A DNA stretch of 64,000 nucleotides from NCBI RefSeq assembly GCF_964245445.1, contig NZ_CAXTNE010000006.1, forward strand, positions 3,909-67,908, given 5' to 3'. The translations under genes were made by a program, and so were the position numbers. The DNA comes from an uncultured Nostoc sp. Lineage in GTDB: Bacteria; Cyanobacteriota; Cyanobacteriia; Cyanobacteriales; Nostocaceae. Shown here piece after piece: positions 269-46,046 of the stretch. The notes under the pieces are model-generated. The model saw only the letters and a program-made list of their open reading frames with translations. It was not told the origin of the DNA and ran no database searches. Positions within the stretch are counted from its first letter, which is position 1. Every line of letters starts with the position of its first letter.

Positions 269-306
269 AAAATATTGCTGGTTTTTGTAGTTTGACAGGG
301 GAGATT

Positions 307-3300: not shown

Positions 3301-5016
3301 ACAGCTAGACCTGAAGACAAAGAACTAGTAGCACCTCGTAATTACATAGAAGCCAAACTGACCGAAATTTGGGCAGGAGTGCTTGGTGTGGATAAAGTGG
3401 GTATTTTTGATAACTTTTTTGAGTTAGGTGGGGATTCTATCCTTGGCATTGTAGTTATTACCAGAGCCAACCAGGCTGGCCTAAAACTGGGAGTTAAACA
3501 ATTATTTCAAGCTCAAACAGTTGCTGGCTTGGCAAGTTTGGCAGTTACGAAAAAGGTAAACCAAACTGAACAAGGACTCATCACAGGTTTAGCCTCTCTC
3601 ACACCAATACAATACTGGTTTTTTGAACAGAATCTACTTGAACCTTACCACTGGAACCAAGCAGTTTTACTAGAAGTTAAACAAGTTCTTCATCTAACTA
3701 TATTAGAAAAATCTGTACAGCAACTACTGTTACACCATGATGTTCTTCGCTTACGTTTTGAGCAAACAGAGTCTGGTTGGCAGCAAATTATATCCAGCCC
3801 TGATACAGAATTACCCTTAATAAATTTTGATTTCTCTGCCCTGTCAGCAAGCAAACAAGAACTAGCCATCGAAACAGCTGCTACCAAATTACAAGCCAGT
3901 CTTAATCTCTCAACAGGCCCATTGATGCGAGTTGCTCTGTTCGACTTAGGGCATCGACCAAGCCGTTTGCTGATACTCATCCACCATTTAGCCGTAGATG
4001 GCGTTTCTTGGCGGATTTTACTGGAGGACTTGGAGACAGTATACCAACAGTTAAATCAAGGCAAGAAAGCGCAATTGCCAACAAAGACAACTTCGTTTAA
4101 ATATTGGTCGCAATGCTTACAGGAATATGCACAATCAGCTACCCTCCAGCAAGAATGGGACTATTGGCTGAGTCCGTCTTGGCAGCAGATTGCTCCTTTA
4201 CCAGTCGATTTTTCTAACGGCGACAATACTGTGGCGGAAGTTCGGAACATCTCAATTTTTCTGACTGTAGAACAGACTCAAGCCTTGCTAAAAGAAGTAC
4301 CAAAAGCTTATAATACACAAATTAATGATGTCTTGTTAACGGCATTAGTACAAGCTTTTTCTCAATGGACTAGCAACAGTTCTTTGTTGTTGGCTCTCGA
4401 AGGTCATGGGCGGGAAGAAATTTTCGATGATGTCGATTTGTCGCGCACAGTAGGTTGGTTTACCTCTGTTTTCCCTGTACTGTTAAATTTAGGAAAAACG
4501 TCTCATCCCGTAGAAGCGTTGAAAGTAGTAAAAGAGCAGCTGCGGGGCATTCCAAATAAGGGAATGGGCTATGGTGTACTACGTTACCTGAGTCAGGATA
4601 CTATGAGAGTAGAGTCACTGCGATCGCTTCCCCAAGCTGAGGTGATCTTCAATTACTTAGGTCAGTTCGATCAAACATTTTCGGACTCGTCAATATTTAA
4701 AATCTCTCATAAATCCCAAGGACAAACGCGCAGTTCGCAAAACTGCGAGACATATATGCTAAATATCGATGCTTTAGTAATTGATAACCAGTTAAGAGTG
4801 AATTGGGCGTACAGTGAAAAAATATATCGACGAAGTACTATTGAACGATTAGCGCAAGAGTTTTTGGAAGCATTGCAAGTACTCGTGACTCATTGTCAAT
4901 ACCCTGAAGACAGAGGATATACACCTTCTGATTTTCCAGAAGCAGACTTAATTCAACAAGACCTTGATCGGTTTTTAGAGAAAATCAACCGAGGGAGTAA
5001 AAATAAAACAACATGA
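307..5016 (+). CDS. NRPS module C-A(Ala)-T-E (D-Ala)
   Basis: C motif MHHIVSDGWS; A cores YTSGSTGRPKG and YKTGD; specificity code read by eye DLFNNALTYK (Ala-type); T motif GGDS; E motif HHLAVDGVSW; C-terminal COM TPSDFPEA. ATG at 307 follows GGGGAG, so it is preferred over TTG at 292. Confidence 0.95.
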   Translation: MDKRKDEISKRRSKLSLVQQEFLKKRLQGEIHSDFQLEVIPKRSQINPAPLSFAQQRLWFLAQLEPNSPFYNIPAAVRLQGQLNLGALQQSFNEIISRHEALRSNFQTIEGQAISVISEMMPLILPIFDISELPLNQQEAEVRQQASQEAQKPFALNSDLLLRAKLLRLSKQEHILLLTMHHIVSDGWSIGVMVRELATLYQAFCNGQPSPLPALPIQYVDFAVWQREWLQGEVLETQISYWLKHLENAPKVLELPTDHPRPAIQTFRGATYSFKLSKELSASLNKLSEQQGSTLFMTLLAGFQTLLWRYTGKEDIVIGSAIANRNRTEIEGLIGFFVNTLVLRTNLAGNPSFEELLKRVREVALGAYAHQDLPFELLVEQLQPQRDLSYTPLFQVMFVLQNAPMSALELPGLTLTPLESSSDSAKFDLTLQMTETEEGLAGSLEYNTDLFQESTIHRMAGHLQTLLEGIVANPQQRLSELPLLSESERHQLLVEWNDTQVNYPQDQCIHQLFEAQVERTPDSIAVVFEDQQLTYGELNTKANQLAHYLQTLGVKPEVLVGICVERSLLMAIGLLAILKAGGAYIPLDHSYPQERIAFILEDTQAPVLLTQESLLEAMPQHKAKVVCLDTDWQTIAQQTQENLLSLVNSQNLAYIIYTSGSTGRPKGVMIQHANTVAMLDWANKTFAMEAMQGVLASTSICFDLSVFEIFVPLCCGGKVILIENALLLPTSSVALDVTLINTVPSVISQLLKTDSIPASVQIVNVAGEPLHNKLVQQLYQQDNIQKVFNLYGPSEDTTYSTFACIHKDTSSTPPIGRPIYNTQIYLLDQNLQPVPVGVAGMLYIGGAGLARGYLNKAELTAEKFIPNPYANLPGERLYKTGDQARYLPNGEIEYIGRVDYQVKVRGFRIELLEIEAVIIQHPTVQEAVVVVNFSQADSQQIVAYIVPQIEQTLTISELRGFLESKLPSYMVPAAFVILSALPLTPNGKVDRKALPTPDTARPEDKELVAPRNYIEAKLTEIWAGVLGVDKVGIFDNFFELGGDSILGIVVITRANQAGLKLGVKQLFQAQTVAGLASLAVTKKVNQTEQGLITGLASLTPIQYWFFEQNLLEPYHWNQAVLLEVKQVLHLTILEKSVQQLLLHHDVLRLRFEQTESGWQQIISSPDTELPLINFDFSALSASKQELAIETAATKLQASLNLSTGPLMRVALFDLGHRPSRLLILIHHLAVDGVSWRILLEDLETVYQQLNQGKKAQLPTKTTSFKYWSQCLQEYAQSATLQQEWDYWLSPSWQQIAPLPVDFSNGDNTVAEVRNISIFLTVEQTQALLKEVPKAYNTQINDVLLTALVQAFSQWTSNSSLLLALEGHGREEIFDDVDLSRTVGWFTSVFPVLLNLGKTSHPVEALKVVKEQLRGIPNKGMGYGVLRYLSQDTMRVESLRSLPQAEVIFNYLGQFDQTFSDSSIFKISHKSQGQTRSSQNCETYMLNIDALVIDNQLRVNWAYSEKIYRRSTIERLAQEFLEALQVLVTHCQYPEDRGYTPSDFPEADLIQQDLDRFLEKINRGSKNKTT
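1783..3335 (+). repeat. 1553-bp direct repeat, copy 1 (entire Ala A domain); copy 2 at 16911-18463
   Basis: Identity starts at CTAGTGGAGTGGAATGAC and ends at GTAGCACC, offset 15128. Off-frame ORFs in the track are duplicated exactly (1874/17002, 2346/17474, 2597/17725). Confidence 0.95.
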
Positions 5017-6413
5017 AAGAAAATATCCAAGATATATATCCATTATCTCCGATACAGCATGGTATGCTTTTTCACAGTTTGCACGCTCCTGAAATGGAAC
5101 TATACCATGCACAAACCGTCTACACTTTCAGTGGCAATCTGAATCTTGCGGCTTTTAAATACGCTTGGCAGCAAGTAGCAACCCGACACACAATGTTGCG
5201 TACTAGCTTCTATTGGGAAGAATTGGATAAACCACTACAAGTTGTGCATCGGCAAGTAGAAGTACCTGTAGAATATCAAGACTGGCAGGAAATCAATCCA
5301 TTAGAACAGCAAGAGCGTTTACAGTCTTTTCTCAACAGCGATCGCCAGCGACGTTTTGATTTTTCCCAAGCACCTCTAATGCGTGTGGCTATCATCCAGA
5401 TTCAAGAACACGCTTACTACCTTGTTTGGAGTAGCAACCTGATCGTTCTAGATGGTTGGTCATATCCATTGGTATTAAATGATGTGATTGAAATTTATGA
5501 AGCTTATTGTCAGGGTGAGGATGCATCCTTAGCAGATGGCAGTTGCTTTAAAGATTATATCAAATGGCTCAAACAGCAGGATTCATCAAAAGCAGAGGAT
5601 TTCTGGCGACAGCATCTTAATGGAGTTAAAGAGGCTACTCCTTTAAGGAATTTAGAGTCAAACAATTTGTCCAACTTAGAACAACGATACGAGGATATAA
5701 AAATCAGTCTATCGGAAGCAACGACAAAGAATCTATATTTATTAGCAAGACAGCATCACCTCACCATGAGTACCCTAGTTCAGGGAGCTTGGGCTATACT
5801 TCTGTATCACTACAGTGGCAAAAATGATGTAGTCTATGGTTGTACTACTTCTGGTCGTCCAGTAGATTTACAAGGTTCAGAGTCAATGGTAGGGGAAATG
5901 GTTAATACCTTACCAGTAAATATCAAGGTAGATATGAATGAGTATTTATTACCTTGGCTTCAACAATTGCAAAATCAGTTAATAGATATTCGTGAATATG
6001 AATATTATCCATTGGTAGATATTCAAAAGTGCAGCGAAGTTCGGGGTAATGTAACCTTGTTTGAGAGCATAGTGGTGTTCGAGAACCAAAAAACAGGTAA
6101 ATTTCTGGAAGAATGGGGGAGTCTAAACATCTCTGAGAAAACTGAATATTACAAAACTAACTATCCTCTAACGATAGTTGGGTATCCTGGTTCAGAACTG
6201 ACAATTGGGATTAATTATGATTTTCGCCGCTTTGATGCTGCAACAATCATTAATATATTGGAGCATTTAAAAATATTGCTCGAAGGCATAGTGACGAATC
6301 CTAAAGTACGTCTTCAGGAGTTATTATTGCTTATAGAGCAAAAACTCCATATTAAATTATCAATGTTAGAAATAGAAATGTCATTGGATTTTGATTTTGT
6401 TTCCACAAATTAA
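5013..6413 (+). CDS. Stand-alone condensation domain (DCL-like) with degenerate active site
   Basis: Starts with acceptor-type IYPLSPIQHGMLFH. The active-site region reads WSSNLIVLDGWS instead of WSHHHxxxDGWS (codons 5427-5459). There is no A or T domain. Confidence 0.9.
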   Translation: MKENIQDIYPLSPIQHGMLFHSLHAPEMELYHAQTVYTFSGNLNLAAFKYAWQQVATRHTMLRTSFYWEELDKPLQVVHRQVEVPVEYQDWQEINPLEQQERLQSFLNSDRQRRFDFSQAPLMRVAIIQIQEHAYYLVWSSNLIVLDGWSYPLVLNDVIEIYEAYCQGEDASLADGSCFKDYIKWLKQQDSSKAEDFWRQHLNGVKEATPLRNLESNNLSNLEQRYEDIKISLSEATTKNLYLLARQHHLTMSTLVQGAWAILLYHYSGKNDVVYGCTTSGRPVDLQGSESMVGEMVNTLPVNIKVDMNEYLLPWLQQLQNQLIDIREYEYYPLVDIQKCSEVRGNVTLFESIVVFENQKTGKFLEEWGSLNISEKTEYYKTNYPLTIVGYPGSELTIGINYDFRRFDAATIINILEHLKILLEGIVTNPKVRLQELLLLIEQKLHIKLSMLEIEMSLDFDFVSTN

Positions 6414-6614
6414 ATAGCTAGATAAAGCTTAAAAAATAAAAGTTAGCAAAAAAAATATTTCCAATATTTTAATATTGATTTATTTATAATTAGAGAAAAA
6501 GAAGGGGTTTTTGGCTTTTAGCGATCGCTTGTTTGACCCGAAGATTTTTTTGAAGGAAAACCCCAGATTCAGCAATACCAGATTAATGTATTTTGTAATT
6601 TAAATAGAAAACTC

Positions 6615-7871
6615 ATGAATATATTTGAAAAGCGTGAATCAAATGTCAGAAGCTATTGCCGCAATTTTACCGCAATCTTTCATAGAGCTAAAGGTTCTAT
6701 AATTTATTCTGAATCAGGTAAAGAATATATTGATTTTTTAGCAGGAGCAGGTGCTTTAAATTATGGACATAATCACGACTATATCAAAGAAAAGGTGATC
6801 TCATACTTAGATGCCGATGGAATAACACATGGTTTGGATATGTATACTTCGGCTAAGGAGAAATTTTTAGCCAAGTTTGATGAGGTAATACTAAGTTCAA
6901 CAAAACTAGATTATCGCATTCAGTTTTGTGGACCAACAGGAACAAATGCAGTTGAAGCTGCTTTAAAACTAGCGAGAAAAATCAAACGAAGAACAGGCAT
7001 ATTTTCCTTCATGGGAGCATATCACGGAATGACTTTAGGGAGCCTATCGATTAGTGGCAACATCGAAATTAGAGCAGGCACAATTGGTACATCAAGTAAT
7101 GTAAATTTTATGCCTTATCCCTATGGATTCATGGAGAGTTTTGACACAATAGAATATATAAATTCTGTTTTAAATGATGTCAAGTCCGGAATTGAAAAAC
7201 CAGCAGCAATAATCTTTGAAACAGTGCAGGCTGAAGGTGGAGTTGTTGTAGCTCCCATTGAGTGGATGCAAAGACTAAGAAGGTTATGTGACGAGAATGA
7301 TATTTTATTAATCTGCGATGATATTCAGGTTGGCTGTGGTCGAACAGGCTCTTTCTTTTCCTTTGAAAGAGCAGATATTGTTCCCGATATGGTAGTACTT
7401 TCTAAATCTATTAGCGGGTACGGGTTTCCAATGTCACTATTATTGATTAAACCAGAATTGGATATATGGGAACCAGGTGAGCATAATGGTACTTTTCGGG
7501 GTAATCAATTGGCATTTATAGGAGCAACAGCGGCTCTAGAGTATAGAGAAAGTAGCAATCTCGAACAAGATGTCAAAGCCAAAGAACTTTTTTTGAAAAA
7601 TTTTCTCACTCAGCAAATAGCACCAATTAGTGAAAAGATAGCAATACGTGGAATTGGTATGATTTGGGGTATTGATTTAAAAAGTTTTGGCGGCAATAGT
7701 TTTGCTAAAAGTATAACATCACGTTGTTTTGAGCTAGGATTAATAGTTGAACGCGCAGGTAGAAATGATACTGTAATTAAAATTTTGCCCCCTTTGGTAA
7801 TTGATATGTCTACCTTAGAAAAAGGTTGTTCAATTATCAAAGAAGCTTTTAATGACTGCATGTCAAATTAA
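6615..7871 (+). CDS. Diaminobutyrate--2-oxoglutarate transaminase (EctB/Dat-like class III aminotransferase)
   Basis: ESNVRSYCRNF N-terminus, GPTGTNAVEAALKLARK, ETVQAEGG, DDIQVGCGRTG, PLP lysine in LSKSISG. Confidence 0.92.
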   Translation: MNIFEKRESNVRSYCRNFTAIFHRAKGSIIYSESGKEYIDFLAGAGALNYGHNHDYIKEKVISYLDADGITHGLDMYTSAKEKFLAKFDEVILSSTKLDYRIQFCGPTGTNAVEAALKLARKIKRRTGIFSFMGAYHGMTLGSLSISGNIEIRAGTIGTSSNVNFMPYPYGFMESFDTIEYINSVLNDVKSGIEKPAAIIFETVQAEGGVVVAPIEWMQRLRRLCDENDILLICDDIQVGCGRTGSFFSFERADIVPDMVVLSKSISGYGFPMSLLLIKPELDIWEPGEHNGTFRGNQLAFIGATAALEYRESSNLEQDVKAKELFLKNFLTQQIAPISEKIAIRGIGMIWGIDLKSFGGNSFAKSITSRCFELGLIVERAGRNDTVIKILPPLVIDMSTLEKGCSIIKEAFNDCMSN

Positions 7872-7924
7872 ATTGGCATACTAATATTTATAACTCAGCA
7901 AGTAATTTATTATCACGAAACAAT

Positions 7925-10696
7925 ATGAGTACCAAATCACACTCAAATGACTTATTATCTCAAAAAATTTATTGGATAAATAAGTTATCAGGAGAACTAC
8001 CAGAAACAAATCTAATTCTGGACTATGTAAGACCTTCATTTTCTAGTGATAGAAACAAATCTCTTAGCTTTGACTTATCAAATGACTTATCTAAAGCAAT
8101 CATTAAGCTAGCTAAAGGTTCTTATTTTTCAACGTACTTGATATTAGTGTCTGCATTGAATATATTGCTACAAAAATATACTCGAAATAATGATGTTATT
8201 ATTGGAATACCTATATATGAAGAAAATTGTATAGGTTGTGTAAATAGCAAAGTCATTCCCTTGCGTACTCAGGTAACACGTCAACTTTCATTCAAAGATT
8301 TTACTTTTGAAGTAAAAGATGCAATTATCGGTGCTTTCAACAATCAGAACTATAATTTTAATGAGTTAATTAAGTTGTTAGAACTATCAACAAGCCCTAA
8401 TCGTTGTCCAATTTTTGACATAGTAGTTTTATTAGAAAATATTCATAGAAAAAAAGATTTAAATCAACTTAATAATGACATAACATTTTATTTTTCAGTT
8501 AATGGTGAAGATATTATTATTAATGTTGAGTATAAAGAACATCTTTTTCAACGTGAAAATATAAAATTGATGATTAGGTATTATGCTAATGGTCTTGAAA
8601 GTATTATCAAAAATGTGAATGATAAAATATCAGATATTCTTTTTTTGAAAGAATCTGATACACACCAGTTATTGAAACAATATAACAACAATACTAAAAT
8701 ATACCCAGTTGATCAGACAATAAATCAATTATTTGAATATCAGGTATCTCAAACTCCAAATAAGATAGCTGTGATTCACAAATCAGCTAAATTAACATAT
8801 CAAGAAATAAATAAGAAAGCTAATCAAATAGCTAGACTACTACGGAAAATAGGAGTTTCTAAAGGAGAGTTTGTAGGCATTTTTAAAGACCGCGATATCA
8901 ATTTTCTGGTTGCTATCCTTGCTGTCTACAAGGCGGGTGGGGCATATATACCGATTGATAGTACTTATCCACCAAATCGAATTAAATATATGCTATCTAA
9001 TAGCGAAGTTAAATTTATATTAACAGATTGTTCGCTATTAAACTCCTTATCAGACTTGCTAGAACATGATTCGCAATTATCATCTATTATTTGTTTAGAT
9101 GATGTCTTGACTAAGACTACACTATTGGCTAATAAAGCAGAGCTTAAAATATATAGCAAGTGTGATTTTGACCAGCTACCTCATGACAATATAGAACATC
9201 TGAATGATGCTGTCACCCCAGCTTATATACTTTATACTTCCGGCTCTACAGGATTATCTAAAGGGGCAATTGTTAGACATGATGGTGCAATAAATCATAT
9301 TTATGCTCAATTTGATGAGTTGGAGTTAAGGTCGGAATTTTGTTTTCTCCAAAGCGCTCCTTCCTCAACAGATATTTCTGTATGGCAATTTTTGGCGCCA
9401 CTTTTAATTGGCGGAAAGACTATAATTATAGATATCGAAACTGTTGCGATTCCCGAACAATTATTTGAAGTACTTAAATCAGAAAAAATTACGGTTGTTG
9501 AATTAGTACCAACATTATTTGGTGGGTTACTTGAATATACTTCCCAATTACCAAATTATGAGCGGGTATTACCAGATTTAAAATGGATGATATTATCGGG
9601 TGAATCTGTATCGGTTAAATGGGTAAATAAGTGGCTTGAGATATACCCCCATATCAGAATTGCTAATGCTTACGGTCCTACCGAAGCTGCTGATGATATT
9701 ACCCAGTTTATCGTTAACAAACCTTTGCCAGAAAATCAGCGAACAGTTCCAATTGGTAAACCATTAGCAAACTTAAATCTCTACATTCTGGATGAAGAAA
9801 TGCAGCTATTACCTATTGGTGTTCCTGGAGAAATTTGTGTATCGGGAATTGGTGTAGGTGATGGGTACTGGAAAAACGAAGAAAAAACTAATTTAAGCTT
9901 TGTTGCTAACCCGTTTACAAATACCATAAACAGCTTACCTGGTAATCGCAGAGATTTAATTTATAAGACTGGAGATTTAGGAAGATGGCTGACTGATGGG
10001 AATATCGAATTCCTTGGACGTATTGACCATCAAGTGAAGATTCGTGGTTTCCGGGTTGAACTTGGAGAAATTGAGACATTTCTAGGTCAGCACCCGAATG
10101 TACGTGAAAATGTAGTTGTGGTTCAACACGAGCAAGCAGATAACGTGCAATTAGTTGCCTATGTGGTTGCGAAGACAGAAGTAGTTCCTAGTATTAACGA
10201 ACTCCGTAGCTTCTTGAAGGAAAAATTACCTGACCACATGATTCCTTCTGCCTTTGTAGTACTGGAAAAACTACCGCTAGCACCAAGCGGTAAAGTAGAC
10301 CGTAAAGCTCTGCCTAAACCAAATAATCTTCGTTTAGAATTAGAAACAGTTTACGTGTCTCCGCGAAATGAGATAGAGCGGACGGTTGCCGATATTTGGC
10401 AAAAAGTACTTAAGGTGGAGAAAGTTGGCATTAAAGATAACTTTTTTGACCTCGGTGGTCATTCGCTAAATGTACTTCAGGTTTATAGCAAAGTGCGAGA
10501 ACTTTTGAAAGCGGATTTAGCTATAACTGACCTTTTTAAATATCCGACTATAAATTCTTTATCACAGTATTTAAGTCAAAAAAATCATAGTGATGAAGTA
10601 TTTGCTTCTGAAAGTCATCAAATCAATGAAAATCTAGAAGCTGGTAAAGCTAGATTAAAACAAAGCCTCTTACGAAAAAAACAACAACTTATTTAA
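7925..10696 (+). CDS. NRPS: N-terminal half-C domain, A(Dab-like), T
   Basis: The N-terminal ~250 aa resemble only the C-terminal lobe of a C domain (YWINKLSGELP, no HHxxxDG). A code by eye DIWEISADDK is close to the Dab code DIWELTADDK. T motif GGHS. Confidence 0.9.
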   Translation: MSTKSHSNDLLSQKIYWINKLSGELPETNLILDYVRPSFSSDRNKSLSFDLSNDLSKAIIKLAKGSYFSTYLILVSALNILLQKYTRNNDVIIGIPIYEENCIGCVNSKVIPLRTQVTRQLSFKDFTFEVKDAIIGAFNNQNYNFNELIKLLELSTSPNRCPIFDIVVLLENIHRKKDLNQLNNDITFYFSVNGEDIIINVEYKEHLFQRENIKLMIRYYANGLESIIKNVNDKISDILFLKESDTHQLLKQYNNNTKIYPVDQTINQLFEYQVSQTPNKIAVIHKSAKLTYQEINKKANQIARLLRKIGVSKGEFVGIFKDRDINFLVAILAVYKAGGAYIPIDSTYPPNRIKYMLSNSEVKFILTDCSLLNSLSDLLEHDSQLSSIICLDDVLTKTTLLANKAELKIYSKCDFDQLPHDNIEHLNDAVTPAYILYTSGSTGLSKGAIVRHDGAINHIYAQFDELELRSEFCFLQSAPSSTDISVWQFLAPLLIGGKTIIIDIETVAIPEQLFEVLKSEKITVVELVPTLFGGLLEYTSQLPNYERVLPDLKWMILSGESVSVKWVNKWLEIYPHIRIANAYGPTEAADDITQFIVNKPLPENQRTVPIGKPLANLNLYILDEEMQLLPIGVPGEICVSGIGVGDGYWKNEEKTNLSFVANPFTNTINSLPGNRRDLIYKTGDLGRWLTDGNIEFLGRIDHQVKIRGFRVELGEIETFLGQHPNVRENVVVVQHEQADNVQLVAYVVAKTEVVPSINELRSFLKEKLPDHMIPSAFVVLEKLPLAPSGKVDRKALPKPNNLRLELETVYVSPRNEIERTVADIWQKVLKVEKVGIKDNFFDLGGHSLNVLQVYSKVRELLKADLAITDLFKYPTINSLSQYLSQKNHSDEVFASESHQINENLEAGKARLKQSLLRKKQQLI

Positions 10697-10731
10697 AAAC
10701 GAATAGAATATTAATTAAAAGGATAAAAATA

Positions 10732-20135: not shown

Positions 20136-20136
20136 C

Positions 20137-23469: not shown

Positions 23470-23626
23470 TCTCAACAAGGTATTGAAGAAATAAGAGCGA
23501 TCGCTAGAAGATGGATACCCTATAAAATCAAACATTTTAGAAAGTGTTCATAACACTTAAAAAAAAGAAGGCAAAACCTTCTTATTTCAAAAATGAAGTA
23601 TAAAAATTTATTGCAACAAACACAAT

Positions 23627-25273: not shown

Positions 25274-25319
25274 ACAACTTGCTATTAGACAAAAAATATT
25301 TATTATAATATTTTGACTT

Positions 25320-30002: not shown

Positions 30003-30042
30003 AATATGTTAGCTTCAGTTAATTTATCTAGATCGGGAAATT

Positions 30043-34674: not shown

Positions 34675-34714
34675 TTTTAAATCTTATCTATAAATAGGAA
34701 AGGAAAAATAGTTT

Positions 34715-35476
34715 ATGTCTTTAGCCAATAATGATGGAAATCATGATCCTATTGCTTCGGTATATAACGCTATAGGTGTCACTTCCGAGGCGGAAAGTAT
34801 AGCACTAATTTTAGAACAATTAATGCTAAAACACCTCTCTAAAGGAACACATATTCTCGACATTGGTTGCGCTAACGGACAGTTAGTCCAACAGTTTCAT
34901 ATAAGAGGTTATCAAACAACTGGACTTGATTGTTCTGAAAAACTATTGCACCACGCCCAAATAAATGCACCTGAAAGTAAATTTATTCTTAGTGATATAC
35001 GTAATTTTGAGTCGCTACCTACCTATGATGCAGTTTTTTCAAGAAACACTCTCGGCTTCATTCTAAACCTTGAAGAATTGACAACTGTCTTCCGAAACGT
35101 ATATGCGGCGATGCATAATAATGGTATTTTTGTGTTCGCCATAGTAACTGGGGACAGTGTATTGCGTGATAGTTTTCTACAAGATTACAATATATGTGAT
35201 GTCAATGATAAATATGTTTATGTTGAAAAAGGCAAATACAACCCAGAAGAAAGGATACGGGAACTCAAGTCCACCACGTTTGAATTGATAAATGGAATTT
35301 GGGAGCGTTCGGACAGTACTCTACTGGAAAAAAATTATTTCTCATCAGAAATTCAGTCGGCTTTAGAAAATGTGGGCTTTATAGAAATTAATCAGTATGA
35401 TAGCAAAGATTTTGGAGACCCTACTCCAGCAGGTGAAGATTGCTTCGTTTGTCGAAAACCATCCCTGACGCCATAG
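34715..35476 (+). CDS. Class I SAM-dependent methyltransferase
   Basis: Motif I ILDIGCANG, motif II TTGLDCSE, then SDIRNF and YDAVFS. Confidence 0.85.
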   Translation: MSLANNDGNHDPIASVYNAIGVTSEAESIALILEQLMLKHLSKGTHILDIGCANGQLVQQFHIRGYQTTGLDCSEKLLHHAQINAPESKFILSDIRNFESLPTYDAVFSRNTLGFILNLEELTTVFRNVYAAMHNNGIFVFAIVTGDSVLRDSFLQDYNICDVNDKYVYVEKGKYNPEERIRELKSTTFELINGIWERSDSTLLEKNYFSSEIQSALENVGFIEINQYDSKDFGDPTPAGEDCFVCRKPSLTP

Positions 35477-35663
35477 TATAATTGCAGAGATTAGTGGCTA
35501 AGTCAAAATTAATTTTTTTGATGATAGGACTTGTCACTTAATAAGCTTTTGATAACAGTATAGTTATCTGAATCAAGAGTTTGGGAATGAGAATTTTTAT
35601 TAAGCGGCAAGTCAAAATTTAGCTAAAAAACTAAAAATAATAAATATTAATAATTTCTTGGCA

Positions 35664-38600: not shown

Positions 38601-39770
38601 CTCCCACTTACACCTAATGGCAAAGTAGATAAGCGTTCTCTGCCAATTGATGAAGTTATCCGATCAACTACTATCCAATCATTTGTTGCTCCTCGGAATT
38701 TTACAGAATTATCATTAGTAAAACTTTGGGAAAATCTCCTAAATACTAACCCTATTGGGGTAACAGATAACTTCTTCGACTTGGGTGGTCACTCGTTTTT
38801 AGCTGTACGCTTAATGGCTCAAATTCATGACAGATTCGAGCATAATCTTCCCTTGTCTACTCTTTTTGAAAACCCGACAATTGAAAAACTAGCAAGCATT
38901 GTCAGTCAGCCAGCCCGTCAGAGTTCTAATTCTCCTCTAGTAGCAATTAATTCTTCTGGTTCTAAGATACCTTTTTTCTGTATGCATGGTGCTGGTGGAG
39001 GTATTAGTCACTATTTTAATTTATCCCGAAGACTTGGTGAAGATTATCAATTTTACGCTTTGGAAGATACCTTAGAACAAGACAAACCAGAAATTATTTC
39101 AGTAGAAGAGACAGCAACTCGCTACCTCCAAGAAATTCGTAAAATACAACCAAATGGCCCTTATCTTTTAGGTGGTCATTGTTATGGCGGTGTACTTGCT
39201 TTTGAAATAGCGCAACAATTACAAAATAAGGGTCAAACAGTAAGTTTATTAGTTGTCATCGATGCCATACTATCAGAAACACCCATTGAATCTACAGACG
39301 ATGACGATGCAAAATTTTTACTCCGCATCGCTGAATCAATAAAAACCGATAATAATATAGACTTTGTAGTACCTTTTGAAGAACTTCGAGATTTGCCATT
39401 AAATCAGCAACTTCATTTTATTAATCAAAAAGCAAAGTTCATCTTTAGCGATACAGAAATTAACGATTTTCTTCACCATTACAATCTGTTTAAAGCTCAT
39501 GTCCAAGCTATGCGAGGTTATATTCCGCAGATTTATCCAAAAAAAATGACTTTATTCCGAGCAAAGGAGGAAATAATCCATGATTTTGAAAGCCCTGAAT
39601 GGAATACCGACGATCCATTTCTAGGTTGGGAGAAATTTTCAAATCAACCTATACAAATAATTGAAATTCCAGGCGACCATTTTTCAATTTTCGTAGAACC
39701 TTATATTGAAGAATTAGCTAAACGTTTGAAAATTTGTATCGATCATGCTGTGTGCGATCTAAATAATTAA
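35664..39770 (+). CDS. Terminal NRPS C-A(beta-Ala)-T-TE
   Basis: C MHHIITDGWS. A domain SFVDSVWE has Val at the usual Asp235 position; code by eye VDWIISFANK is close to the beta-Ala code VDWVISLADK. T GGHS; TE GGHCYGG and GDHFS. Confidence 0.93.
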   Translation: MDKQDFNLSPAKKALLEKWKRGNIQADIIPKRQVFKNIPLSFSQQRLWFIDQLYHGSSFYNIPIAFHIKGQLNIKVLQQSLNEILKRHEVWRTTFSVVNGEPVQEIAPQLTWDLPIINLEHLSGKDWESEVKQLVAESAKKPFNLAKGLLVRATLLRLSEEEHILLVTMHHIITDGWSCSVFLRELSMLYAAFLTNQPSPLPELPIQYADFAIWQRDRIQGEFLATQLNYWKQQLKAELPVLQLPTYRPRPKVTTFSGAKQYFTFSKALTDVLRQLSQREDATLFMSLLAAFNILLYCYTDQEDILIGSPIANRNRAELEGMLGLFVNTLVLRNNLSGNPSFREFLHRVREVTLDAYAHQDLPFEMLVEKLQPERHLSRNPLYEIMFVLQNTPTSVQEVSGLTLRTLEFDSGTAQLDIFLSISESQEGLTGSLEYNTDIFDSTMITQFINNFQTLLGNIVDNPEQRISELSLLTASEQEQLLFKFNQTSADYPQDTSLHQLFEQQVELTPDSLALISQSEKLTYRQLNHKVNQLAHYLQKQGVTKETLVALCVERSIEIVTGILAILKAGGAYIPLDPSYPVERLNFMLSDSQASLLITKQEILEKLSLSSAKTVCLDIQKDEIAQESSENPINIYLFDNLDNLAYIIYTSGSTGTPKGVLGTHRGTVNGLHWLWKTYPFTQGEVCCQKTATSFVDSVWEIFAPLLQGIPTVIISNATILDPQLFIEALAHHKVSRIILVPSLLGLLVDNYSHLTKKLSQLKLWITSGETLSINLAKTFRELMPFVKLINFYGSSEVSANATYYDTSLLQEQASSVPIGSAIDNTQIYVLNRDLKLTPIGVIAELYIGGDGLAKGYLHRPELTQEKFIDNPFVPGTKLYKTGDFVRHLNDGSLEYLGRQDEQVKIRGFRVELDEITAAIAQHPDVQESVVIASNDAQENQRLIAYVVTNKQDLTTQLLSYLQHQLPNYMLPSAFVVLDKLPLTPNGKVDKRSLPIDEVIRSTTIQSFVAPRNFTELSLVKLWENLLNTNPIGVTDNFFDLGGHSFLAVRLMAQIHDRFEHNLPLSTLFENPTIEKLASIVSQPARQSSNSPLVAINSSGSKIPFFCMHGAGGGISHYFNLSRRLGEDYQFYALEDTLEQDKPEIISVEETATRYLQEIRKIQPNGPYLLGGHCYGGVLAFEIAQQLQNKGQTVSLLVVIDAILSETPIESTDDDDAKFLLRIAESIKTDNNIDFVVPFEELRDLPLNQQLHFINQKAKFIFSDTEINDFLHHYNLFKAHVQAMRGYIPQIYPKKMTLFRAKEEIIHDFESPEWNTDDPFLGWEKFSNQPIQIIEIPGDHFSIFVEPYIEELAKRLKICIDHAVCDLNN

Positions 39771-39788
39771 TGGGAGTGAAAAAAGCTG

Positions 39789-41129
39789 ATGAAACTACCT
39801 CCAGGACCGAAAACTCCTTCTTGGTTGATAGCTCTACAATTTAAGGCTGATCCCTTTGGCTATATGGATACTATTTCCAAACGTTATGGTGATATTGTCA
39901 CTTTAATGTTTGGCTTTACACCAAGAATTTATATCAGTAATCCTTCAGCAATAAAGGAGATTTTTACAAATACCAAGGAAATTGTAGCTGGGGGTGAGTT
40001 GAACCCGGAGTTCGTCTTGATGACAGGAAATCAAGGAGTTCTCCAACTTGATGGTTTAATTCACAAAAATCGACGCAAACTGTTAATGCAGAGTTTTCAT
40101 GGAGCGCGGATGCAAGCCTGTGGGCAACGTATATGCGAACTTACAGAAAAAATTATCAGTCAACAGGCAGTCGCAAAGCATTTTGTTGCATACCCAATAA
40201 TTGAAGATATTACCTTGCGAGTGGGTATAGAAGTTGTAATGGGTTTATATAGAGGAGAGCGCTATGACAAAATTAAGCATTTATTTGTGTCTGCACTTAG
40301 ACATGGAGAATCTCCAGTAAATAAGATTCTTAGCAATATTTTTGGAGAAAGAGATTTAGGTCGATGGAGTCCATATGGTTCTCTCCTTCACCTTCGACAA
40401 CAACTTTTTCAATTGCTATTGAGTGAGGTGGAAGAACGTCGCAAGCAAGCAGATTTTTCACGCGTTGATATGATTAGCGATCTGATATTTGCTAAAGATG
40501 AAACAGGTCAACCACTAAGTAATGAAGAAGTACGCGACCTCTTATTATCGCCTATATTTGCAGCTGGTGATGCTTCCGGAACTGCGATCGCTTGGTCTTT
40601 GTACTGGATTCACCGTTTACCTTATATTCATCATCGCCTGCTATCAGAACTAGACAGCCTTGGTGAAAACCCAGATCCCATGAGCATTGTTGCACTACCC
40701 TACCTCAGCGCAGTTTGTAATGAAGCCTTACGAATTTACCCAACTCAGTTGTTTACATTTCCCAGGCTGGTAGAGTCTCCAGTCGAGGTGATGGGTTACA
40801 AGTTGAATCCTGGTACAATAGTTATTGGTAATATTTATTCCACTCATCAACGCGAAGATTTATACCTTAATCCAAAAGAATTTCAGCCAGAGCGCTTTTT
40901 AGAAAAACAATTTTCTCCCTACGAATTTTTCCCATTTGGTGGCGGCTCTCGGGTTTGTATTGGCGGGACTTTTGCTCTATTTGAAATGAAACTTATATTA
41001 GCAACTATTCTTTCCCGTTATGAATTAGAGCTAGTTAGTCAGCGCCCAGAACGTCCCAAATTTGGAGGTCTAATTTGTTACCCAGCTAGCGGCGTCAAGA
41101 TGGCCGTGCGTGGTCTGCGTCAACATTAA
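39789..41129 (+). CDS. Cytochrome P450 (CYP110-like)
   Basis: KLPPGP N-terminus, EALR (ExxR), PERF, heme motif FGGGSRVCIG. Confidence 0.95.
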   Translation: MKLPPGPKTPSWLIALQFKADPFGYMDTISKRYGDIVTLMFGFTPRIYISNPSAIKEIFTNTKEIVAGGELNPEFVLMTGNQGVLQLDGLIHKNRRKLLMQSFHGARMQACGQRICELTEKIISQQAVAKHFVAYPIIEDITLRVGIEVVMGLYRGERYDKIKHLFVSALRHGESPVNKILSNIFGERDLGRWSPYGSLLHLRQQLFQLLLSEVEERRKQADFSRVDMISDLIFAKDETGQPLSNEEVRDLLLSPIFAAGDASGTAIAWSLYWIHRLPYIHHRLLSELDSLGENPDPMSIVALPYLSAVCNEALRIYPTQLFTFPRLVESPVEVMGYKLNPGTIVIGNIYSTHQREDLYLNPKEFQPERFLEKQFSPYEFFPFGGGSRVCIGGTFALFEMKLILATILSRYELELVSQRPERPKFGGLICYPASGVKMAVRGLRQH

Positions 41130-41215
41130 CGACAGTCATAGCCATCGATTGCTGACTTAGTTTAAAACCTATCTTAAAACCTATCAATTATTTAACATTT
41201 CTCAGAAAAATACCA

Positions 41216-42550
41216 ATGAAACTACCTGATGGCCCAAAAACTTCTCGCCGATTACTCAGTCAATTTGAGACTGATCCCCTTACCTTCATGGATACTATGG
41301 GCGATCGCTATGGCGACATTTTCACTATTATGGCTGATTCAATACCTCTAGTAATAATCAGCAACCCAGAAGGGATGAAGCAGATTTTTACTAATGCAAA
41401 AGAGATTACAGCTTCTGGTAAGTTGAATCAAGGTGGAGAATCAATTGTCGGCAAGAATGGGTTGCTTGCACTAGATGGGTTGCGTCACAGAAATCGCCGT
41501 AAGTTGTTGATGTCACCGATGCGCGAAACTCAGACACAAGAATATGGACAGCATATTTGTAGAGTCACAGAAAAAGTTATGAATCAACTGACTTTAGGTA
41601 AATCTTTTCTTGCTTATCCCACTATGCAAAAGATTACCCTAGAAGTAGTTTTGCCATCATTATTTGGGTTACATCAAGGAGAGCGTTACGAACAATTTCG
41701 ACAACTGTTTTCTAATCTAATAAGTTACGCTCGGTCTCGCTGGCTGGACATCTCTCTGTCCTATCCTTTTCTAAAGAGGGATTTGGGTCCCTGGAGTCCT
41801 TGGGGATACTGGCTTCACTTACAACGACAATTTGACAAACTGCTCCACATCGAAATTGAAGAGCGTCACCAACAAGTAAATGCTTTGCGTACCGATGTAT
41901 TATCAGAACTGGTATTTGCTTACGATGAAACTGGTCAAGCAATGACCTATGAATATATACGAGATTTGTTTCCATCATTGCTATTTGGTGGTCAAGATGC
42001 GTCAGCCACTGCTATAAGTTGGTCTTTGTACTGGATTCATAGTACACCTGGTGTTCGCGATCGCTTATTAGAAGAACTTGACAGTCTTGGTGAATCCCTA
42101 GAACCTGGGAAGATTATTGCATTACCTTACTTAAATGCTGTTTGTAATGAATCCCTACGAATTTATCCAACTCAGGTTGTGACATTTCCACGACTTGTAG
42201 AATTACCAATTGAAGTCATGGACTACAAATTAGACCCAGGTACCGTAGTAAGAGGATGTATATACTTAACTCATCAACGAGAGGATTTATATCCACAACC
42301 AAAGCAATTCAGACCAGAGCGCTTTCTAGAAAAAGAATATTCTCCCTATGAGTTTCTACCATTTGGTGGTGGCGCTCGTCGCTGTCCAGGTGAGTTATTA
42401 GCACTTTTTGAAATGAAACTGGTATTAGCAACAATTCTCTCACGCTATCAATTAGCGTTAGCAGATAAAAGAGTAGAGAAACCTAAGGCTAGGGGCGTTA
42501 ACTATCCTCCTGCTAGTGGCTTGAAGATGGTAATGCTTGGGTCACGGTAA
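41216..42550 (+). CDS. Cytochrome P450 (CYP110-like), tandem paralogue
   Basis: KLPDGP, ESLR, PERF, heme motif FGGGARRCPG. Confidence 0.95.
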   Translation: MKLPDGPKTSRRLLSQFETDPLTFMDTMGDRYGDIFTIMADSIPLVIISNPEGMKQIFTNAKEITASGKLNQGGESIVGKNGLLALDGLRHRNRRKLLMSPMRETQTQEYGQHICRVTEKVMNQLTLGKSFLAYPTMQKITLEVVLPSLFGLHQGERYEQFRQLFSNLISYARSRWLDISLSYPFLKRDLGPWSPWGYWLHLQRQFDKLLHIEIEERHQQVNALRTDVLSELVFAYDETGQAMTYEYIRDLFPSLLFGGQDASATAISWSLYWIHSTPGVRDRLLEELDSLGESLEPGKIIALPYLNAVCNESLRIYPTQVVTFPRLVELPIEVMDYKLDPGTVVRGCIYLTHQREDLYPQPKQFRPERFLEKEYSPYEFLPFGGGARRCPGELLALFEMKLVLATILSRYQLALADKRVEKPKARGVNYPPASGLKMVMLGSR

Positions 42551-42568
42551 TAAGTAAATAAATTAAAA

Positions 42569-43945
42569 ATGACTTCACAAAACCAATCTAAAATAAAAAA
42601 GGAGATCCTTCAAGGTAACATCTTAAAACTGATGTTCAAGTTATCAGCCCCTGGCATTCTAGTAATGCTGCTGATTAATATGAATGCTTTTATTGATGCT
42701 CTATTTGCTGGGCAGTTTATAGGAGAAACAGCAATTGCTGGCATATCTTTATCTCTACCACTTACTGCTATCATCGATGGTTTTGCTTACTTAGTTGGAA
42801 CAGGTTCAGCTTCTGTCCTGAGCCAAGCTATTGGTGCTGGAGATATAAAAACTCAGTCCAAAATATTTGGCAATTTAATTATAATGGGTATTTTTATATC
42901 CTTTTTTATTACTATAATTGGCTACAGTTTTAGTGAAGAATTAATTAAATTAATGGGAGGAAGTGGTCAAGTAGCTTTTGTCGGTTCTGAATACTTTAAA
43001 ACTTATATGCTAGGCGCAGTATTTTATATTTTAGCAGTAGCTTCCAACCAACTTATTAAGTCAGAAGGTAAAGTTAGATTAGCTATGACTTTTGCAGGTA
43101 TTTATGTCATTATTAATATAATTTTAAATCCTATATTTGTTGTAGTTTTTCATTGGGGTATCCGGGGAATTGCTCTTGCTACTGTTATTGCTATGATAGT
43201 ATTTTGTATAATAAACTTTATATACTTCTTATCTGGTAAAAGTTCTATTCCAGTGAATCCTAGAAAGCTGGCTCTAGCAATAAATTTACTTCCGAGAATT
43301 TTATCAGTGGGAATGTCAGCATTACTCGCTAATGTTATGGAATTAGTTCAAAATTTTGTTGTTTTTAAATCTATCTCCTATTACGGAACAAATAGTGATA
43401 TTGCTTTCTACGGAGCAACTATAAGATTGACTTTATTAGCATTCATTCCTTTAAATGGATTTGTGCAAGCATTACAACCAGTGATTGGCATAAATTATGG
43501 AGCCAAAAATTATGATAGACTGAAAAAAGCTTATTTTACTTTTATTATTTCTGTGACTGCTTTAGCTGTGTTATTTTGGTTGCCAATGCAATTATCACCA
43601 GAAATATTTTTAAGTTGGCTATTGCCAAATTCGACTTTCACAAACAATGATTTACTCAATTTTCGCGTTTTGAGTTTATTAATACCAACAATAGCTTTTG
43701 TTCCCTTTGGTTCAGTTTTATTTCAGTCTATAGGAAAGGGTAAAACTGTTTCTATAATAATTATTTTAAATAATCTAGTTTTATTTATTCCATTAGTGGT
43801 TATTTTATCAAATTTACTAGGTGTTAGTGGTGTATATTATGGAATAGCTATAACAGACTTTTTACTGATGATTATTGCACTTCTGTTAACATTTATTGAA
43901 TTCAAAAAAATGAATATAAATCATCTCAAAGATAATCATTATTAA
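42569..43945 (+). CDS. MATE family efflux transporter
   Basis: About 12 hydrophobic segments; IDALFAGQFIG, SQAIGAGD, NIILNPIF, GIRGIALAT, QPVIGINYGAKNYDR. Confidence 0.9.
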   Translation: MTSQNQSKIKKEILQGNILKLMFKLSAPGILVMLLINMNAFIDALFAGQFIGETAIAGISLSLPLTAIIDGFAYLVGTGSASVLSQAIGAGDIKTQSKIFGNLIIMGIFISFFITIIGYSFSEELIKLMGGSGQVAFVGSEYFKTYMLGAVFYILAVASNQLIKSEGKVRLAMTFAGIYVIINIILNPIFVVVFHWGIRGIALATVIAMIVFCIINFIYFLSGKSSIPVNPRKLALAINLLPRILSVGMSALLANVMELVQNFVVFKSISYYGTNSDIAFYGATIRLTLLAFIPLNGFVQALQPVIGINYGAKNYDRLKKAYFTFIISVTALAVLFWLPMQLSPEIFLSWLLPNSTFTNNDLLNFRVLSLLIPTIAFVPFGSVLFQSIGKGKTVSIIIILNNLVLFIPLVVILSNLLGVSGVYYGIAITDFLLMIIALLLTFIEFKKMNINHLKDNHY

Positions 43946-44027
43946 ACTATCAATATAATTCCAATTGTATTCATTTTAAATTGTAGTTCTCACACATGCA
44001 TATTTATTCACTATAAAGGTCACAAAA

Positions 44028-44906
44028 ATGCCTCTAAAACATAAAGGTGCTATCGTAATTACAGGAGCATCAACAGGTGTAGGCAGAGCAGCAGCTCTTA
44101 TGCTTGACAAAAAAGGATATCGAGTGTTTGCATCAGTCCGTAAAGAAAAAGATGCTGAATCTCTCAAGAGTGATTCCTCCGAGAATTTGACACCGATTTT
44201 CATGGATATTACAAAAGCAGAAGAAATCAAATCTGCCGCAGATATTGTTTCAAAATCTATTCCTGATGAAGGATTAGTAGGATTAGTAAATAATGCTGGT
44301 CTGTTAGTTGATGGGCCACTGGAGTTTATTTCGCTTGATGATCTGAGATGGCAATTTGAAGTCAATGTTTTTGGGCAAATAGCAGTGACGCAGGAATTTT
44401 TACCGTTAATCCGAAAAGTTAAAGGTCGGATTATTAATATTGGCTCTATCGGAGGAGTAATTTCTGGACCATATATCTCTGCTTTGTGTGCTTCCAAGTT
44501 TGCGTTAGAGGCATTTACCGATGCTCTGAGAATAGAATTACATCCTTGGGGAATCGAAGTTATCTTAATTGAACCAGGCTCAATTGCATCTGCGGCTCCG
44601 GATAAAGTAGAAGAAAGCTTTAGAAAAAATTTTGCCAATATGTCACCTGATGCTAAAGCAATGTATGGAGATACATATAAACTTTTTGTAGAAGATTTAA
44701 TTCAATCAAATCGTGAAGGGATGCCGCCGGAACAAGTTGCAGATGCAATTATAAAGGCTTTAGAAGTCAGGAAGCCTAAAACACGTTATTTCTTATCTAA
44801 GGGGCAGCTAGGTTTAATGCTTGAACTAGTGCTGAAAAAATTTACACCAGACCGTAGTTATGATGCAATGATTATAAAAAGTTTGAATTTAAAACATCAG
44901 ATTTGA
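44028..44906 (+). CDS. Short-chain dehydrogenase/reductase with atypical catalytic motif
   Basis: TGASTGVG, LVNNAG, EVNVFG, IEPGSI; the YxxxK position reads LCASK. Confidence 0.9.
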   Translation: MPLKHKGAIVITGASTGVGRAAALMLDKKGYRVFASVRKEKDAESLKSDSSENLTPIFMDITKAEEIKSAADIVSKSIPDEGLVGLVNNAGLLVDGPLEFISLDDLRWQFEVNVFGQIAVTQEFLPLIRKVKGRIINIGSIGGVISGPYISALCASKFALEAFTDALRIELHPWGIEVILIEPGSIASAAPDKVEESFRKNFANMSPDAKAMYGDTYKLFVEDLIQSNREGMPPEQVADAIIKALEVRKPKTRYFLSKGQLGLMLELVLKKFTPDRSYDAMIIKSLNLKHQI

Positions 44907-45005
44907 ATTCATTATTGTGCATTTTATCCGGTTGAATACTCAAATCATAAGTATATCACTGGAATATTACAGACAATCAACACTTAGTTAATTCACTTCA
45001 AAATC

Positions 45006-46046
45006 ATGATTTCATCTGATTCAAAACCTAATAATACAGACTTTCAAATCAGTCCGATAGAATGGGTACATGCTTACTGGGTTTCACGGTGTATCTATGT
45101 CGTCGCTAAACTTGGTATTGCTGATTTGCTAAAGGATGGTTCTCAACATTGCGATATTTTAGCTGCTGCAACAAATACGCATAGTGATTCTCTATATCGA
45201 GTTTTGCGGGCGATCGCCAGTATCGGAATTTTTGCGGAGACACAAACTCGATGCTTTGAGCTAACACCATTGGCAGATTGTTTACAAAGCAACGTTCCTG
45301 ACTCAATTCGTGCTATGGCTATTTTCCGAGGTGAAGAGCATTACTATAAATCCTGGGGAAATTTAATGTATTGCTTACAAACTGGTAAAAGTGCCTTTGA
45401 AGATTTGTATGGTATGGATTTGTTTGAATACAATGAACAGAATTCCAGCCGAGGAGAAATCTTCGACCAGGCTATGACTTCATCAAAAGATTCTTATACC
45501 GAACACCTGGAAGCTTATGATTTTTCGTCAATTAATAAGCTAATAGACGTTGGTGGTGGTAAAGGGAGCTTTTTAGCTGCTGTACTCGAAGCTAATCCTA
45601 CTATGATAGGAGTATTGTTCGATCAGGCAGAAGTGATTAATAGAGCCAAGGATTCACAAGAAATAGCATCCGTTATTAGTCGTTGTCAGCTTGTAGGAGG
45701 TAGCTTTTTTGAAGCTCTGCCACAAGGAGGAGATGCTTATGTTCTTAAACATATTATTCAGGACTGGGATGACGAGCGATCGCTTGCTATTCTTCAACGT
45801 TGTCATCAAGCCATGATAGAGCAAGGACGGGTTTTAGTGATAGACTACGTACTTCCTCCTGCTAACGAGTTTTCAGGAAGCAAGTTTATAGATGTCAACA
45901 TGTTAGTAATGTGTCCAGGTGGACGTATTCGTACTGAAGCTGAGTTTGAAGATTTATTTAAATCAGCAGGTTTCAAACTTACTAAAATTTATCCAACACA
46001 ATCGGATGTTAGTATTATTGAAGGAGTTAAAATAGATATCAATTAA
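45006..46046 (+). CDS. Family-2 O-methyltransferase-fold SAM methyltransferase with dimerisation domain
   Basis: AKLGIADLL dimerisation region, LIDVGGGKG, GSFFEALP, KHIIQDW, GGRIRTEAEF. Confidence 0.9.
   Translation: MISSDSKPNNTDFQISPIEWVHAYWVSRCIYVVAKLGIADLLKDGSQHCDILAAATNTHSDSLYRVLRAIASIGIFAETQTRCFELTPLADCLQSNVPDSIRAMAIFRGEEHYYKSWGNLMYCLQTGKSAFEDLYGMDLFEYNEQNSSRGEIFDQAMTSSKDSYTEHLEAYDFSSINKLIDVGGGKGSFLAAVLEANPTMIGVLFDQAEVINRAKDSQEIASVISRCQLVGGSFFEALPQGGDAYVLKHIIQDWDDERSLAILQRCHQAMIEQGRVLVIDYVLPPANEFSGSKFIDVNMLVMCPGGRIRTEAEFEDLFKSAGFKLTKIYPTQSDVSIIEGVKIDIN

Follow-up and report, generated by a model that had tools for sequence, protein, structure and literature searches.

Introduction

In the kirromycin pathway, beta-alanine is supplied by an aspartate decarboxylase and the Dieckmann cyclase KirHI closes the pyridone ring (PMC5818483), and knockout of the P450 KirOI leaves a pyridone ring without its double bond (PMC5818483). 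Thioesterase-like Dieckmann cyclases use a Cys-Asp-His triad, and a C89S mutant was inactive (PMC10956176, PMC4979870). We describe here a biosynthetic gene cluster of an uncultured Nostoc sp. that compares in several respects with these systems, and that lies in a 64,000-nt stretch of DNA (the window; assembly GCF_964245445.1, contig NZ_CAXTNE010000006.1, positions 3,909-67,908, forward strand). It is a modular hybrid of nonribosomal peptide synthetases (NRPSs) and type I polyketide synthases (PKSs), built of condensation-adenylation-thiolation (C-A-T) and ketosynthase-acyltransferase-(ketoreductase)-acyl carrier protein (KS-AT-(KR)-ACP) modules, with a terminal thioesterase (TE) and tailoring and export genes, and eight of its enzymes lack a canonical catalytic residue. 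The cluster is a working pathway with non-standard enzymes, neither decaying nor the outcome of a single coordinated redesign. We consider it probable that it is a live member of a large orphan family across the Nostocales, and that its eight non-canonical residues have separate origins.

Three traits of the kirromycin type are present: a dedicated aspartate decarboxylase, a last module that loads beta-alanine (as we read its code), and a preceding beta-keto group left unreduced. As in kirromycin and aurodox (KirD, KirB, KirHI and KirOI), the last NRPS module would thus load beta-alanine onto a beta-ketoacyl chain, and a Cys-type alpha/beta-hydrolase is available for release with a P450 beside it. 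The locus differs in that it has a decarboxylase of the PanP type, dependent on pyridoxal phosphate (PLP), and, as candidate cyclase, a cis TE whose sequence shows no detectable kinship with the KirHI/NcmC type; it also belongs to a cyanobacterium and specifies a mostly peptidic chain, and the ring is here only predicted. With TrdC, SlgL, NcmC and BpdE the TE shares the Cys-Asp-His triad, the alpha/beta-hydrolase fold and, by prediction, a beta-ketoacyl-aminoacyl thioester substrate (PMC10956176, PMC4979870), whereas those cyclases are free-standing with a four-helix bundle and the TE here is a fused type I domain, so that membership in their group is unsupported by sequence. AB3403 of Acinetobacter baumannii is similar in its C-A-T-TE architecture and its GG-x-C-x-GG elbow with Cys, and differs in phylum and cluster.

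Conservation and selection

A sequence-only reading of the window had noted that eight enzymes lack the expected catalytic residue although every open reading frame (ORF) is intact, and had attributed this to selection rather than decay. All eight changes are present in the translated sequence. The free-standing condensation domain, which we call C*, has SSNLIVLDG at 5430-5456 (N at 5436-5438, L at 5439-5441) where HHxxxDG is expected, and HH is kept in the four other C domains and both epimerization (E) domains of the cluster. The AT of PKS1 (AT1 or AT0) reads GHGVG (12607-12621), with GHSIG in PKS2 and PKS3; the ketoreductase of PKS3 (KR3 or KR0) reads GGLESIE (33541-33561) as against GGLGGIG in KR1 and KR2, with a Pfam KR score of 70 versus 167-170 bits; and the nucleophile elbow of the TE is GHCYG (39174-39188). 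Domain maps were drawn from Pfam, and catalytic positions in the P450s, the enzyme of short-chain dehydrogenase/reductase type (SDR) and the O-methyltransferase (OMT) were placed by alignment to solved structures in the PDB. P450a has AGDASGT and P450b GQDASAT, and AAGDAS of P450a pairs with AGHET of CYP120A1 (2ve3), which places Ala at the Thr position. In the SDR, the Leu of LCASK falls on the catalytic Tyr when aligned to DHRS9 and 17beta-HSD1, and IIQDWDD of the OMT aligns with LHDWDD of 6c5b and 8h3t.

There are no stops or frameshifts, as had been reported, every ORF is full length relative to its orthologues, and the heme Cys, ExxR, S-adenosylmethionine (SAM) motif, TGxxxGxG, Lys, carrier Ser and KS Cys are retained. 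The further statement that several of the changes need more than one base substitution holds only for Tyr to Leu, which takes two steps (TAY to TTR); a single step suffices for AGT to GGT, CAT to CAG, ACN to GCN and Ser to Cys. A ninth anomaly, absent from the earlier account, concerns the module for 2,4-diaminobutyrate (Dab): the C domain with which it opens is reduced to its C-terminal half (7937-8674).

Conservation was assessed in 89 related loci and 390 proteins; a genome scan based on P450a gave 186 stretches with an encoded relative, and synteny was read in the best 80 of these 186. In these 80 loci a match to the terminal NRPS lies upstream of P450a except in two short contigs, the tail PKS (PKS3) is also present in 73, and the MATE transporter and SDR occur in most. 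No product name for this cluster family was found in the open-access literature searched, and within that scope it seems to be an orphan family.

Six of the eight states do not vary among tens of orthologues and are not chance occurrences. The TE triad is complete in every orthologue (Cys 77/77, Asp 77/77, His 77/77), and all orthologues aligned have a degenerate KR3 motif and keep the KS Cys, AT Ser and ACP Ser. The Thr site of P450a is Ala in 81/81 (DA in 77, HA in three and GA in one), with the heme Cys in 81/81; P450b has Asp-Ala in 32/32, and the SDR has Leu at the Tyr site in 57/57. C* departs from the HHxxxDG motif of a competent condensation domain, and when 120 homologues were split at 66% identity the second His was missing in all 45 at or above this value, replaced by Leu or Met (x-N/H/S-L or -M), and KHHLILDG was found in many of the more distant ones. 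Six of the changes are old, selected and family-wide, and two, those in AT1 and the OMT, are recent.

Ratios of nonsynonymous to synonymous substitution rates (dN/dS) point in the same direction. These are pairwise Nei-Gojobori values, simple estimates rather than codon models on a tree, from relatives that span synonymous distances (dS) of about 0.05 to about 1; fifteen genes have a usable orthologue, and PanP and PKS2 have none. Each of the 15 has a dN/dS of 0.07-0.37, and the individual domains give 0.19-0.36 (AT0), 0.29-0.38 (KR0) and 0.20-0.23 (TE). Orthologue conservation and dN/dS were the test that the sequence-only reading had itself put forward, and the outcome lies clearly on the side of selection. 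That the cluster is silent and in early pseudogenisation, as might be supposed from the eight lost catalytic residues and from the absence of a cupin gene that its relatives carry, is barely credible: the ratios in all 15 comparable genes exclude decay, no reading frame is broken, and 30-80 species share these residues as fixed states.

Gene organization

Seventeen co-directional genes on the + strand occupy positions 292-46046, and the ORFs annotated beyond 46 kb are housekeeping-like. The carrier-protein Ser, the KS Cys and the A-domain core motifs are all present in the translated window. EctB and PanP were called by NCBIfam equivalog cut-offs, and the substrates given for adenylation codes are those that we take the codes to specify. 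The genes are as follows.

292-5016, +: NRPS1, C-A-T-E; code DLFNNALTYK (presumably Ala, D-Ala after epimerization); HH motifs
5013-6413, +: C*, free-standing DCL-type condensation domain; SNLIVLDG, without both His
6615-7871, +: EctB-type diaminobutyrate-2-oxoglutarate transaminase (class III aminotransferase; Dab supply); NCBIfam TIGR02407
7925-10696, +: Dab module, half C-A-T; C-terminal lobe of an LCL-type C domain (7937-8674); code DIWEISADDK
10732-15483, +: PKS1, KS-AT0-KR-ACP; AT Ser to Gly (GGT, 12613-12615)
15480-20135, +: NRPS2, C-A-T-E; code DLFNNALTYK (presumably Ala)
20137-23469, +: NRPS3, C-A-T; code DVEDIGAVSK; start probably ATG 20137
23627-25273, +: PanP, PLP-dependent aspartate 1-decarboxylase (beta-alanine supply); NCBIfam TIGR03799
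25320-30002, +: PKS2, KS-AT-KR-ACP; every motif canonical
30043-34674, +: PKS3, KS-AT-KR0-ACP; KR nucleotide motif GGLESIE (33541-33561)
34715-35476, +: class I SAM methyltransferase (Pfam); optional family member
35658-39770, +: terminal NRPS, C-A(presumed beta-Ala type)-T-TE; code VDWIISFANK; TE Cys TGT (39180-39182)
39789-41129, +: P450a; I-helix AGDAS, with Ala (40572-40574) in place of the Thr; directly follows the TE gene in every case
41216-42550, +: P450b; I-helix GQDAS, with Ala (41999-42001) likewise; carried by only some of the clusters
42569-43945, +: MATE efflux transporter (Pfam/NCBIfam)
44028-44906, +: SDR; catalytic Tyr site occupied by Leu (TTG, 44484-44486); TGxxxGxG, Lys and Arg38 retained
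45006-46046, +: OMT, PF00891-type methyltransferase; Gln (CAG, 45759-45761) at the catalytic His site

The class I SAM methyltransferase (34715-35476) was found in 49 of the searched loci (47 by ORF assignment). The TTG start listed for NRPS3 (20014) overlaps NRPS2 by 122 nt, and the ATG at 20137, directly behind the NRPS2 stop, is the more likely start. At the left edge of the window, positions 2-265 (frame 2) encode about 88 C-terminal residues of an ORF that is cut by the boundary and ends in ...EYVNVKVIN, and this may be a further member of the cluster. The G+C content falls to 0.32-0.34 at 6001-10000 (the EctB/Dab cassette) and 42001-44000 (MATE) from about 0.40 elsewhere in the cluster, and these stretches may reflect separate module origins. 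A 220-aa ORF on the minus strand (43976-44638), antisense to an intergenic region and the SDR gene, is probably spurious.

Siderophore clusters of the Anabaena PCC 7120, Nodularia and fabrubactin types are defined by Dmaq (FbnL/FbnM-type) or by chelator and uptake genes (PMC12971057, PMC4247773). None of these was seen among the annotated ORFs of the window, and since Dmaq and uptake genes are absent there we have not adopted a link to such clusters.

The invariant tail

Directly upstream of the tail PKS, 36 loci carry a PKS gene, nine an NRPS gene and seven PanP, and whole upstream assembly lines also vary. What stays constant is KR0, the beta-Ala module, the Cys-TE and P450a. The terminal adenylation code, VDW[IV][IV]S[LF]ANK, is found in 76 of 76 orthologues. 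Because the upstream part is variable and the tail is fixed, the conserved part of the product is its C-terminus. The EctB score is 575.6 bits (TIGR02407 cut-off, 552.2) and the PanP score 614.7 bits (TIGR03799 cut-off, 606.1), both above the equivalog thresholds, so the cluster makes its own 2,4-diaminobutyrate and beta-alanine. In six of the loci with PanP at this place the copy is 82-85% identical to that in the window, and the seventh retains a 29-residue end fragment (76%).

We propose that KR3, unable to bind NADPH, would leave a beta-keto group beside the beta-alanyl thioester, and the predicted constant part of the product is X-CO-CH2-CO-NH-CH2CH2-CO-S-enzyme, the substrate type of Dieckmann cyclases. 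The Cys-TE would then release the chain by Dieckmann-type C-acylation, giving a 3-acyl-piperidine-2,4-dione (5,6-dihydro-4-hydroxy-2-pyridone) head group, and the adjoining P450 may oxidize the ring, as in kirromycin. We favor this kirromycin-like release to a beta-alanine-derived acyl-piperidinedione or pyridone, which is drawn by analogy and which we hold tentatively, because under it both KR0 and the Cys-TE make sense and P450a has a plausible role.

Several considerations weigh against it. The adenylation codes were read by hand against a GrsA-PheA sequence whose numbering checked out, and the substrates that we take them to specify (Ala, Dab-like, basic and beta-Ala) are presumptive assignments by likeness to published codes. 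The TE is an ordinary type I domain, fused in cis, with type I TE domains of NRPSs and PKSs as its top PDB matches, and NcmC (PDB 6E6Y) was not among its 39 PDB matches at E <=1e-3. The best match, AB3403 (4zxh, E = 3e-30), also has Cys, and we know of no Dieckmann role for it, nor do we know its product or release chemistry. The favored model explains neither the Thr-less P450s nor the role of an SDR that lacks Tyr and, in most orthologues, Ser, and the window contains no trans-AT gene beside the AT0 of PKS1. Moreover, since Ser is used by some cis Dieckmann TEs (PMC10956176), Cys is neither required for nor specific to Dieckmann chemistry.

A Cys-TE would also favor aminolysis by Dab or basic side chains, and a second explanation of the tail is that the TE carries out macrolactamisation or aminolysis through the Dab gamma-amine or a basic side chain, with KR3 leaving a mere ketone. 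The conserved Cys-Asp-His triad is compatible with this, side-chain amines are predicted upstream, and the C* cassette and the tail occur in one cluster in Calothrix PCC 7716 (loci L083 and L017). The upstream modules vary, however, while KR0, the beta-Ala module and the Cys-TE are constant, so that no conserved position for an upstream nucleophile is evident, and we regard this explanation as unlikely. Dieckmann release remains the reading of the tail that we prefer.

The C* domain and the Dab cassette

The Dab module lacks any other complete C domain. Its own C lobe covers only positions 186-456 of the Pfam Condensation profile, and the same half-C-A-T architecture recurs in every orthologous module seen, those of L081, L083, L085 and L087-L089 included. 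C* shares 47% identity with the C domain of NRPS3, likewise placed after an E domain, and about 25% with LCL-type domains; its DCL-type kinship and its position after an E domain make it the right type of domain in the right place. Both C* (dN/dS 0.11-0.24) and EctB (0.09-0.13) are constrained. Most likely C* still transfers the chain from upstream onto Dab and does so by positioning, not base catalysis.

C*, often a cupin/JmjC gene, EctB and the half-C-A(Dab)-T module form a cassette that recurs in differing assembly lines, those of Nostoc C052, Calothrix PCC 7716, Nodularia and Nostoc DedQUE04. In several relatives, C* and EctB are separated by a 293-aa cupin/JmjC-like gene (L081, 11600-12481; L083, 11660-12541; L089, 4997-5878). 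It is absent here (6414-6614) and in the closest relative, L087, and is truncated in L088; a remnant was sought between C* and EctB in the window and none was detected.

We also considered whether C* might be an X domain of the glycopeptide type, which recruits P450s. X domains belong to the last module, between T and TE, and this reading was rejected because C* is free-standing or fused behind an upstream carrier, sits about 30 kb before the TE and forms part of an EctB/Dab cassette.

Acyltransferases of the three PKSs

KR0 and inactive AT domains are a common feature of assembly lines. As in other modular type I PKSs with a silent KR or inactive AT, the GxGxxG motif or the Ser of GHSxG is lost here in domains that remain under purifying selection; the differences are that KR0 is fixed family-wide and always precedes the beta-Ala module, and that AT0 has no dedicated trans-AT nearby. 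In AT1 the nucleophile alone is lost and the domain is still constrained. The Ser is missing (GHG[IVL]G or GHDVG) only in the seven listed orthologues of 74-95% identity, and GHSIG is kept in one orthologue at 78% and in all others at or below 77%; the loss is recent and belongs to one subclade.

AT2 (26936-28003) and AT3 (31632-32699) differ at three positions over 1067 nt, with the remainder of PKS2 and PKS3 about 60-75% identical, and this looks like recent gene conversion. The simplest reading of AT0 is that PKS1 is loaded in trans, with AT2 and AT3 probably compensating for the lost activity. Two other departures were seen in PKS1: its ACP has an NRPS-like GGHSL (15190-15216) as against GGDSL in PKS2 and PKS3, and KS1 has HGTAT in place of HGTGT, with the Cys and both His kept.

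P450s, SDR and OMT

The P450 change from Thr to Ala and the SDR change from Tyr to Leu are fixed subfamily signatures that would imply non-standard chemistry. Both P450s keep the acid residue, and the Ala is followed by Ser in the window; orthologues, too, most often have Ser at this position. Thr is likewise missing from paralogues at 56-63% identity, and a relative at 41% has ETT. The acid-Ala pair in place of acid-Thr resembles that of P450 EryF (Ala245), and the heme Cys and ExxR are intact here; as EryF illustrates, Thr-less P450s can hydroxylate with assistance from the substrate. The nearest relatives of solved structure are distant (CYP120A1, E = 3e-30).

P450a is also a mosaic allele. 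Its dS to L025, L029 and L069 is 0.53-0.58, and the flanking genes have dS of 0.05-0.23 to the same loci; its best match is in L001 (Nostoc mirabile), at 86%.

The SDR retains the cofactor motif TGxxxGxG together with Lys and Arg38 in 57/57 orthologues, departs from the Asn-Ser-Tyr-Lys tetrad of classical SDRs, and is under constraint (dN/dS 0.11-0.17). Its catalytic Ser is lost in 41 of the 57 (Ala in 38, Gly in three) and kept in the subclade of the window. Among the aligned segments of the best 150 representatives of 50%-identity clusters, the Tyr site is Leu 13 times and Ile three times, one of these from a Mycobacteriaceae metagenome-assembled genome, and we take this as a wider, uncharacterized subfamily of Tyr-less SDRs. 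The annotations of the cluster members give these relatives generic names only, and we know of no characterized SDR family with Leu at the Tyr site. A Tyr four residues upstream (PY..L) was considered as a compensating residue and set aside, as many orthologues have Phe there.

The losses in C*, AT0, KR0 and the SDR raise the question of whether some of these are pseudoenzymes, kept for structure or docking with no chemistry of their own. KR0 and AT0 are indeed under purifying selection without cofactor binding or a nucleophile, and most SDR orthologues lack both Ser and Tyr. For KR0 and AT0 this overlaps with the explanation that we favor. Elsewhere it fits less well, as the SDR preserves its cofactor motif, Lys and Arg38 throughout, and C* is of the right type and in the right place for a Dab module that has no other C domain available. 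We think it doubtful as an account of these domains.

The OMT departs from the catalytic-His pattern of PF00891 (xxHDW) and has the SAM motif. Gln is present in four of 21 (the window and three orthologues) and His in the other 17; dN/dS is 0.07-0.24, and the comparison between the Gln types of the window and L047 gives dS 0.95 and an omega of 0.135. The switch from His to Gln is recent and has been kept since it arose.

Discussion

The sequence-only reading had gone further and proposed that several of the lost residues are general acids or bases needed for oxygen-centered chemistry and dispensable for amine or iminium substrates, the whole pathway having been re-tooled jointly for nitrogen chemistry. 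One element of this proposal is well supported, namely an amine-rich scaffold: the cluster has EctB, a Dab-like code (DIWEISADDK), a probable basic code with two acidic pocket residues (DVEDIGAVSK), and PanP with a code of the beta-Ala type. Some of the individual chemistry is also conceivable. A Tyr-less SDR could reduce a protonated imine, an OMT with Gln for His could N-methylate an amine, and a Cys-TE favors aminolysis.

The mechanistic argument does not carry over to most of the enzymes. In AT and TE the Ser acts as a covalent nucleophile, in the KR it is cofactor binding that is lost, and the P450 Thr serves in O2 activation. Nor can the His of C* be called dispensable for amines, because the canonical C domains of the same cluster acylate amines and yet keep HH; in the OMT, too, most orthologues retain His. 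The changes also differ in age, six being family-wide and those of AT1 and OMT restricted to subclades, which does not fit a coordinated event. We therefore regard joint re-tooling as improbable.

The individual features of this locus all have precedent. The new variants are the fixed tail of KR0, beta-Ala module, Cys-TE and P450, the His-less C* cassette, and the Tyr-less SDR. Three of the enzymes merit study in their own right: the fused Cys-TE beside its predicted beta-ketoacyl-beta-alanyl substrate, the His-less C domain of the Dab cassette, and the Tyr-less SDR subfamily. More generally, annotations of a missing catalytic residue can mark conserved design features, and comparison with orthologues separates these cleanly from decay.

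The family is among the most widespread orphan NRPS-PKS families of heterocyst-forming and lichen-associated cyanobacteria, and the constant part of its product can now be stated as a concrete, testable prediction. We suggest, with considerable reserve, that Nostocales, including lichen symbionts, may widely make undescribed amine-rich peptide-polyketides that would end in a beta-alanine-derived 3-acyl-piperidine-2,4-dione or 4-hydroxy-2-pyridone C-terminus, and that would be produced with a cis-acting Cys-TE as Dieckmann cyclase, Thr-less P450s that then tailor the ring, an SDR of a new kind without Tyr and usually without Ser, and a DCL-type C domain, devoid of His, that loads the chain onto Dab.

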